Source: Escherichia coli (lineage in GTDB: Bacteria > Pseudomonadota > Gammaproteobacteria > Enterobacterales > Enterobacteriaceae). Taken from it: a DNA stretch of 64,000 nucleotides. Numbering within the stretch: position 1 is the first letter of the stretch; the number at the start of each line of letters is the position of its first letter. The stretch lies in assembly GCF_050920415.1 (NCBI RefSeq), contig NZ_CP169309.1. One strand, given 5' to 3'. Shown one piece after another: positions 25,974-26,070 of this stretch. Position numbers and translations under genes: made by a program. Under the pieces are notes generated by a model, which was not told where the DNA came from, searched no databases, and was given only the letters and a program-made list of their open reading frames with translations.

Positions 25974-26028
25974 TTGAAAACCGGCGACCCGAAAAGGTTC
26001 CAGAGTTTGAATCTCTGCGCTTCCGCCA
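25974..26028 (+). repeat. Partial direct copy of serT 3' half (anticodon loop to CCA), att-like remnant
   Basis: TTGAAAACCGGCGACCCGAAAAGGTTCCAGAGTTTGAATCTCTGCGCTTCCGCCA, near-identical to serT 23325-23379 with two differences. Confidence 0.85.
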
Positions 26029-26036
26029 GATAAGAT

Positions 26037-26070
26037 AAGGGGTGAGCTAAATGCTAACCCCTTTTTCTTT
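26037..26070 (+). terminator. Intrinsic terminator after the displaced serT 3' copy
   Basis: Hairpin AGGGGTGAGC/GCTAACCCCT followed by T-run. Confidence 0.55.

Follow-up and report, generated by a model that had tools for sequence, protein, structure and literature searches.

The cryptic prophages of Escherichia coli K-12 include small defective lambdoid remnants that retain scattered genes and att scars and are immobile. In STEC, serT/yccA is among the named prophage sites (PMC8767318; PMC8065619). For the tyrosine integrases that insert DNA into tRNA genes (tDNA), the literature describes anticodon-centred, or 'A' class, integration sites (Williams 2002, NAR 30:866, cited in PMC4383910; bioRxiv 10.1101/2020.11.02.365908), and attP sites of this anticodon-centred type account for 2,083 of the 3,919 islands in Islander (PMC4383910).

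Here we analyse a 2.6-kb islet between serT and yccA in the window, i.e., the whole 64,000-nucleotide stretch of E. coli DNA under study, where the 3' part of serT is repeated on the far side of the islet. We consider it very likely that the two repeat copies are the attL and attR scars of a lambda-like phage that integrated in serT and subsequently decayed to a 2.6-kb remnant. The argument draws on an empty site, a free phage, intact lysogens, and a second genome that carries the same islet.

Results

The repeat pair at serT

The locus is chromosomal, with the gene order hyaB(-), hyaA(-), serT(+), 2.6-kb islet, yccA(+), tusE, yccX, rlmI, and window positions 23200-26200 are 100% identical to strain MFDS1022581 (NZ_CP169399.1). 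ARAGORN places tRNA-Ser(UGA) at 23292-23379 with the anticodon at 23326-23328, and the anticodon stem-loop reads CCGGT-CTTGAAA-ACCGG. The gene and the two repeat copies are as follows:

23251..23279, + strand: candidate sigma-70 promoter of serT, TTTACA-17-TATAGT (consensus scan, 10/12; same in K-12)
23292..23379, + strand: serT, intact tRNA-Ser(UGA) (ARAGORN; Rfam tRNA model, 57.5 bits; identical to K-12 serT)
23325..23421, + strand: attL repeat copy, from the anticodon loop to CCA and then phage-type P' sequence with a hairpin (repeat search; alignments)
25974..26028, + strand: attR, displaced non-functional 3' fragment of serT with private substitutions at 25995 and 26008 (alignment, shuffles, genome comparison)

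The candidate promoter precedes the point of integration and was left unaffected. A sequence-only reading of the window had noticed the repeat, and the repeat is real: the segment 23325-23379 (T33 to the CCA end) is identical to 25974-26028 at 53 of 55 positions, with both copies on the + strand, a chance expectation of 0, and matches in none of 100 dinucleotide-preserving shuffles. Ungapped extension lengthens the match to 97 nt at 85% identity (23325-23421 versus 25974-26070), and pairwise alignment agrees. The two differences in the tRNA part of the downstream copy are G to A at 25995, in the variable-arm stem, and C to T at 26008, which is C56 in the T loop; a third difference follows at 26029, just past CCA, and a fourth at 26044, in the stem of the hairpin.

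Origin of the two copies

In K-12, which has no islet, serT is directly followed by AAGGGGTTAGCTAAATGCTAACCCCTTTTTCTTTTGCC and then by the yccA leader, i.e., by the same hairpin and flank that are found downstream of the islet in the window, and most of the 5,426 complete E. coli genomes give the same two-piece match as the K-12 empty site. The hairpin that follows intact serT in the window, GGGGTTACCAAATGGTAACCCC then TTAGTTTTTT, is not found in K-12. The free phage Evi (LR597642) has this attL-type hairpin with a single G.U-compatible change, and there a serT segment (CGGTCTTGAAAA...CCAAATAA) and the hairpin are located ~150 nt downstream of int. The Evi attP contains CGGTCTTGAAAA...CCA followed by the attL-type hairpin, which is preceded by CGGTCTTGAAAACCGG...CCAAATAA. 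The content of the Evi attP therefore shows that the phage attP includes the 3' part of serT plus the phage's own terminator, and the comparison of K-12 with Evi leads to the conclusion that the terminator of the intact gene is phage DNA and that the fragment beyond the islet is chromosomal, namely the displaced 3' end of serT together with the native terminator. Judging from these alignments, the functional serT of this strain appears to end in phage-derived DNA, with a 5' part, up to the anticodon stem-loop, that is chromosomal and a 3' part that probably came with the phage. The sequence-only reading had suggested that the element supplied the 3' part of the tRNA together with a terminator and had proposed an islet-free strain as the means to decide which copy is ancestral; the suggestion is borne out by the Evi attP, which has both parts, and by the attR-type terminator of K-12, and the comparison with K-12 identifies the downstream terminator and flank as the ancestral chromosomal ones.

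Both junctions are available in QA-1986 630, a clean single lysogen with attL = B-O-P' and attR = P-O-B'. Its attL joins the chromosomal 5' part of serT to Evi-type sequence that starts 5 nt after CCA, and its attR joins the phage P arm and CGGTC...CCA to the K-12-type terminator and flank. Consequently, the attP/attB identity block measures 65 nt (window 23320-23384), with strand exchange inside it; in clean lysogens the exchange is bounded between CGGTC and CCA+5, its position inside the 65-nt block not being fixed by sequence alone. The attL copy of the window aligns with the Evi attP as well as with the attL of N96 and of QA-1986 630, and the sites of Evi, O157, QA-1986 630, and N96 phage 2 all read CGGT-CTTGAAA-ACCG, with symmetric arms and a 7-nt loop. 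In 646 of the 5,426 genomes the attR fragment comes after the 3' end of a related integrase gene (~89% identical DNA), and in the annotated examples among those, O157:H7 included, yccA is located just beyond the serT fragment. The islet is flanked by intact serT on one side and by a cognate, equally oriented 3' fragment on the other, a layout that belongs to the Islander definition of a tDNA island. The proposal that the repeat marks a tyrosine-integrase att site in a tRNA gene is thus upheld by the K-12 empty site, the Evi attP, and the QA-1986 630 junctions.

The attL of O157 FDAARGOS_293 was left out, and QA-1986 630 and N96 were used in its place, because the left end of the serT prophage in that genome abuts btsS. 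In FDAARGOS_293 (NZ_CP022050.2 457000-506600) the int/attR end of the prophage abuts yccA and the far end meets btsS, not hyaA-serT, which suggests a prophage-mediated chromosomal rearrangement.

The Stenotrophomonas phages BUCT708 and BUCT709 show ~90% identity over ~100 nt to the segment of the Evi attP that holds the 3' half of serT. The resemblance suggests that unrelated phages of other hosts have a similar tRNA-Ser attP segment.

Terminator hairpins

A GC-rich hairpin and a T run follow each of the two repeat copies:

23387..23421, + strand: phage-supplied intrinsic terminator of serT, TAAGGGGTTACC-AAAT-GGTAACCCCTTA then GTTTTTT (terminator scan; fold; Evi homologue)
26037..26071, + strand: native chromosomal serT terminator, orphaned upstream of yccA (same as K-12 except at 26044; fold)

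The attL hairpin has a perfect 12-bp stem with a predicted energy of -20.3 kcal/mol (z -4.4). The attR hairpin, predicted at -17.5 kcal/mol, has one internal G.A mismatch in its stem, which is due to the private T to G change at 26044, and is followed by the T run TTTTTCTTTT; the ancestral hairpin of K-12 is predicted at -21.6 kcal/mol. A strict terminator scan reports the attL hairpin and does not report the attR one. The two sequences had been described beforehand as equally hairpin-forming, and both do form hairpins, but they are not equally strong. The phage-type and chromosomal hairpins are homologous and differ at one loop base and at one stem pair, G-C in the chromosomal form and C-G in the phage form, a compensatory change that keeps the pairing. 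Both have the form of intrinsic (Rho-independent) terminators and would probably function as such. A match to RAGATH-19 in Rfam, which spans serT and the hairpin, was disregarded as weak (E 0.68, far under the gathering score).

Contents of the islet

When compared by BLAST with the intact 48-kb serT prophages of N96 and O157, the islet (23380-25973) resolves into five to seven segments, which include the P' arm with hairpin, lom, the STnc100-like region, the tRNA cluster, and the int 3' end and occur in the same order and orientation as in those prophages. The recognizable elements are the following:

23641..23841, - strand: Ail/Lom outer-membrane protein pseudogene (Pfam PF06316, E 2.4e-29; RefSeq; matches lom of intact serT prophages)
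24284..24476, - strand: STnc100-family sRNA homologue, prophage cargo (Rfam RF02076, 111.7 bits versus a gathering score of 47)
24786..24936, - strand: prophage tRNA cluster (ARAGORN; Rfam; collinear with the N96 and O157 prophage tRNA clusters)
24786-24856, - strand: tRNA-Gly(UCC) (ARAGORN; Rfam, 45.1 bits)
24860-24936, - strand: tRNA-Arg(UCU) (ARAGORN; Rfam, 61.5 bits)
24940..25010, - strand: decayed ileZ-like tRNA-Ile(CAU) pseudogene (aligns to the O157 prophage tRNA-Ile)
25699..25869, + strand: integrase remnant, last 57 of 339 codons (BLASTP; RefSeq 'integrase, missing N-terminus')

The collinearity of these segments points to the islet being the remnant of a lambdoid prophage, in which case a prophage of ~48 kb has been reduced to 2.6 kb and ~45 kb is gone. 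The STnc100 match is full-length, and its counterpart in the O157 serT prophage adjoins the tRNA cluster of that prophage. A third tRNA at ~24940-25010 was considered and rejected, with no call by ARAGORN or Rfam and an alignment that reveals a decayed pseudogene; this ileZ-like sequence, directly upstream of tRNA-Arg(UCU) and tRNA-Gly(UCC), has lost the pairing of its acceptor and T arms. The integrase remnant is 91% identical (BLASTP) to residues 283-339 of the tyrosine recombinase of the O157 serT prophage, a protein of 339 aa that matches PF00589 and occupies the equivalent position in intact lysogens. Pfam gave no matches for the ORFs at 25287-25634, 23939-24358, and 24626-24763. The first of these (+ strand) is AT-rich and encodes 115 aa with a hydrophobic N-terminus, annotated from 25341 as hypothetical protein WP_024166241.1; the last (- strand), also AT-rich, encodes a hydrophobic peptide of 45 aa.

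The islet is present in 2 of the 5,426 complete E. coli genomes, namely this strain and N96, at the same site. An intact copy of its exact parent phage was not found: in the phage collection the int-attP segment was matched by Evi only, the other matches being generic lom or tRNA matches, and among the E. coli genomes the exact P' arm of the islet is limited to this strain and N96. This P' arm has an extra 14 nt in common with the chromosome (GATAAGGGGTTA...), where Evi-type phages have TCAAGGGG, with TCAAGGGGTTA at the place of GATAAGGGGTTA. Therefore, either the parent attP differed from the available ones or the junction was later altered by homologous exchange.

The motif TTGGTATA (CTGGTATA in the P' arm of the window) occurs in the window at 23426-23434 and 25902-25909. 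Of these motifs, the P arm of Evi-type attP sequences has one and their P' arm three, as against one in the P' arm of the islet. These motifs may be arm-type binding sites of the integrase, in which case the repeats may have collapsed in the remnant.

A deletion at the left edge of attR

The sequence between the integrase remnant and the downstream serT fragment is a shortened phage arm:

25870..25973, + strand: attP P-arm remnant with a 42-bp deletion (alignment with O157, Evi, and N96 phage 2)

The P arm runs ...TTTTCAGC-AATTTCACG...TTTTTCTT-CGGTC-TTGAAAA in Evi, in O157, and in phage 2 of N96, and in the window and the N96 islet it runs ...TTTTCAACA-TTGAAAA, which corresponds to a 42-bp deletion with TT microhomology that the two islets have in common. 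The deleted segment comprises the core-proximal P arm (37 nt) and the CGGTC of the anticodon stem, i.e., the left core arm of attR. Since identity starts at CGGTC in the intact relatives, the original homology began in the anticodon stem and the TTGAAAA edge is secondary. The sequence-only reading had placed the edge of the repeat exactly at TTGAAAA in the anticodon loop, which is correct for the window as it stands but not as the original boundary, located 5 nt further 5'. Because int and xis are lost and the left core arm of attR is deleted, the remnant is very probably immobile.

The same islet in N96

The genome of N96 (NZ_CM169999.1) contains the same islet with the same deletions and with 2 SNPs across 2,650 bases relative to the window, and it matches K-12 at every base of the downstream serT fragment, the hairpin, and the leader. 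A second lambdoid prophage, intact and 48 kb long, is inserted between serT and the islet in N96, and the resulting tandem array (NZ_CM169999.1 3024350-3075400) has three att sites in series. The attL of this phage 2 has Evi-type P' sequence, and the middle att site consists of the phage-2 P arm, then CGGTC...CCA, then the phage-1 hairpin of the islet. With an intact second prophage in it, the restored serT shows that a gene repaired by a phage can still function as attB.

A divergent tract across attR and yccA

The differences in the downstream serT fragment are the first in a longer series:

25995..26918, no strand assigned: divergent haplotype tract with the attR differences, through yccA (SNP map versus N96; identity limits)

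Compared with N96, the window has 8 differences within 25995-26123 (130 bp) and more through yccA to 26918, after which the two genomes are almost identical again until 28066. The best identity of any other complete genome is 97.4% over 25974-26240 and 98.6% over 26124-26960, and the two tRNA substitutions are private to this strain among the 5,426 genomes. The changes in the tract leave the YccA protein as it is in K-12, and many variant sites in yccA and just downstream carry the allele of the outgroup E. albertii; consequently, the tract represents a genuine divergent haplotype rather than sequencing error or local decay. The tRNA substitutions affect the variable-arm stem and C56, so the copy in which they arose must have been non-functional, and they are tolerated because the displaced copy is non-functional. 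The most likely source of the ~0.9-kb tract is an unsampled Escherichia lineage with an element of its own at serT, from which homologous recombination would have imported it. The donor was not found in exact scans with a private flank 33-mer in genome contigs and a tRNA-fragment 39-mer in metagenome contigs (0 exact matches in either), nor via a yccA 45-mer. The 45-mer had one match, E. albertii NBRC 107761, which was rejected as the donor with a locus that is 89% identical overall and has a K-12-type terminator.

These results bear on the age of the integration, which had been called not recent on account of the two base differences between the copies. The differences cannot serve as a date of the event, the N96 islet having a K-12-identical copy and the differences being private and opening the divergent tract. 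An event that is not recent is still likely, because ~45 kb of prophage has been lost.

Discussion

Proposed mechanism

We propose that a lambdoid phage with a tyrosine integrase would have entered serT, the tRNA-Ser(UGA) gene, by means of an attP that carried a 65-nt copy of serT, which began at the CGGTC in the anticodon stem and ended 5 nt beyond CCA, with the phage's own terminator hairpin behind it. Recombination within the identity block would have split serT and, by analogy with anticodon-centred sites, the crossover may have occurred in the 7-nt anticodon loop between the CGGT/ACCG stem arms. The resulting attL, composed of the chromosomal 5' part, the phage 3' part, and the phage terminator, would constitute the functional gene (23292-23421), and attR, with the original 3' part and the native terminator, would have been moved to the far end of the prophage beside yccA (25974-26071). 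Later internal deletions would have reduced ~48 kb to 2.6 kb and left the lom fragment, the sRNA, the tRNA cluster, and the last 57 int codons in collinear order, and the further 42-bp deletion would have shortened the P arm and taken away the left core arm of attR.

Alternative explanations

When only the window and K-12 are compared, a different position of the crossover suggests itself, namely in the terminator region at about GGGGTT/A: attL equals K-12 as far as GGGGTTA and is phage-like thereafter, and attR differs from K-12 at four sites up to GGGGTG and is K-12-like from there through the hairpin. The four downstream differences would then be polymorphisms brought by the phage attP, which would have to read GAAAAGG...GTTTGAAT...CCAG...GGGGTG. 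We considered this explanation at first, and it was ruled out with N96, Evi, and QA-1986 630, to the point where we regard it as very unlikely. The N96 attR, which belongs to the same islet, equals K-12 at all four sites, which largely refutes it; moreover, the tRNA variants occur in none of the Evi attP and the attP-derived parts of O157, QA-1986 630, and N96 phage 2, the attL of the clean lysogen is phage-type already 5 nt after CCA, so that the exchange took place inside the tRNA block, and the private differences continue past the repeat into unique chromosomal DNA. The same differences could also have accumulated in place under relaxed selection, in which case their number would measure the time since integration. 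Changes at positions that a functional tRNA would not tolerate do call for a non-functional copy somewhere, yet the window and N96 are separated by only 2 differences in the 2,650 bases of the islet interior as opposed to 8 in 130 bp from 25995 onward, the tract is protein-silent through yccA and rich in E. albertii alleles, as expected of a haplotype that is old or was imported, and the N96 copy of the same scar is unmutated. Decay in place is accordingly unlikely.

Other alternatives concern the nature of the islet itself. It could be a small element in its own right, such as a satellite or an integrative mobilisable element that uses the integrase of a helper phage; att-like repeats on both sides, apparently intact tRNA and sRNA genes on board, and the tandem arrangement in N96 with an intact phage that encodes a related integrase are all compatible with that idea. 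The genes in the islet, however, are truncated lambdoid genes in collinear order (the lom fragment, the int fragment, and the decayed tRNA), its attR is without the left core arm and 37 nt of the P arm, and it occurs in 2 of 5,426 genomes at one site with 2 internal SNPs, which makes a self-standing element highly improbable. A tandem or segmental duplication of the serT 3' region without any mobile element would likewise yield direct repeats of equal orientation, but it is refuted by the prophage origin of the intervening DNA and by junctions that correspond to the attP of a free phage and to att sites in intact lysogens, and we attach next to no probability to it. It is conceivable, but decidedly improbable, that the remnant is a retained module, in which the phage-built serT 3' end and terminator, tRNA-Arg(UCU), tRNA-Gly(UCC), and the STnc100 sRNA are kept for serT expression or rare-codon decoding and the att scar served as the left anchor for the import of the divergent yccA. 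Integration of a lambda-like phage in serT followed by decay is the reading that we retain.

Implications

This reading explains a tRNA gene fragment, an orphan terminator, and several pseudogenes between serT and yccA, and its use is mainly one of annotation hygiene. Dating by the number of mismatches between att scars is unreliable, because flanking recombination can replace a scar. The tandem in N96 provides a clean natural demonstration of a phage-repaired tRNA gene reused as attB. The current understanding of tRNA-targeted integration is unchanged by these findings.

Comparison with known systems

The closest relatives of the islet are the serT/yccA lambdoid prophages (O157:H7, N96, QA-1986 630, and Evi), which use the same attB, have a homologous integrase C-terminus (91% aa, ~86-89% DNA identity), P arm, and phage-type terminator hairpin, and have in common with the islet the gene order tail fibre, lom, tRNAs, Q, and int beside attR. 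In contrast to them, the islet has ~45 kb deleted, 57 codons of int, and the 42-bp P-arm deletion; its P' arm is a variant with 14 more nt in common with the chromosome and one TTGGTATA instead of three, and its tRNAs are Gly/Arg where intact serT prophages have Ile/Arg/Arg or Gly/Thr. As at 'A' class sites, intact tDNA and a displaced 3' fragment in the same orientation bracket the island and the element restores the gene, with an identity block that in the intact relatives of the islet extends from the anticodon stem-loop past the 3' end. The islet departs from that class in that its integrase is not intact and the left edge of the fragment is clipped by a deletion, and it would probably be discarded by automated searches for islands that depend on an integrase gene. 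It differs from the cryptic remnants of K-12 in its location at serT, its much smaller size (2.6 kb), and its rarity (2 of 5,426 genomes). The locus is a classic example of the att scars left in a tRNA gene, here on both sides of a lambdoid prophage that has largely decayed, at a site already known for such prophages, and features of this kind are ordinary and well understood.
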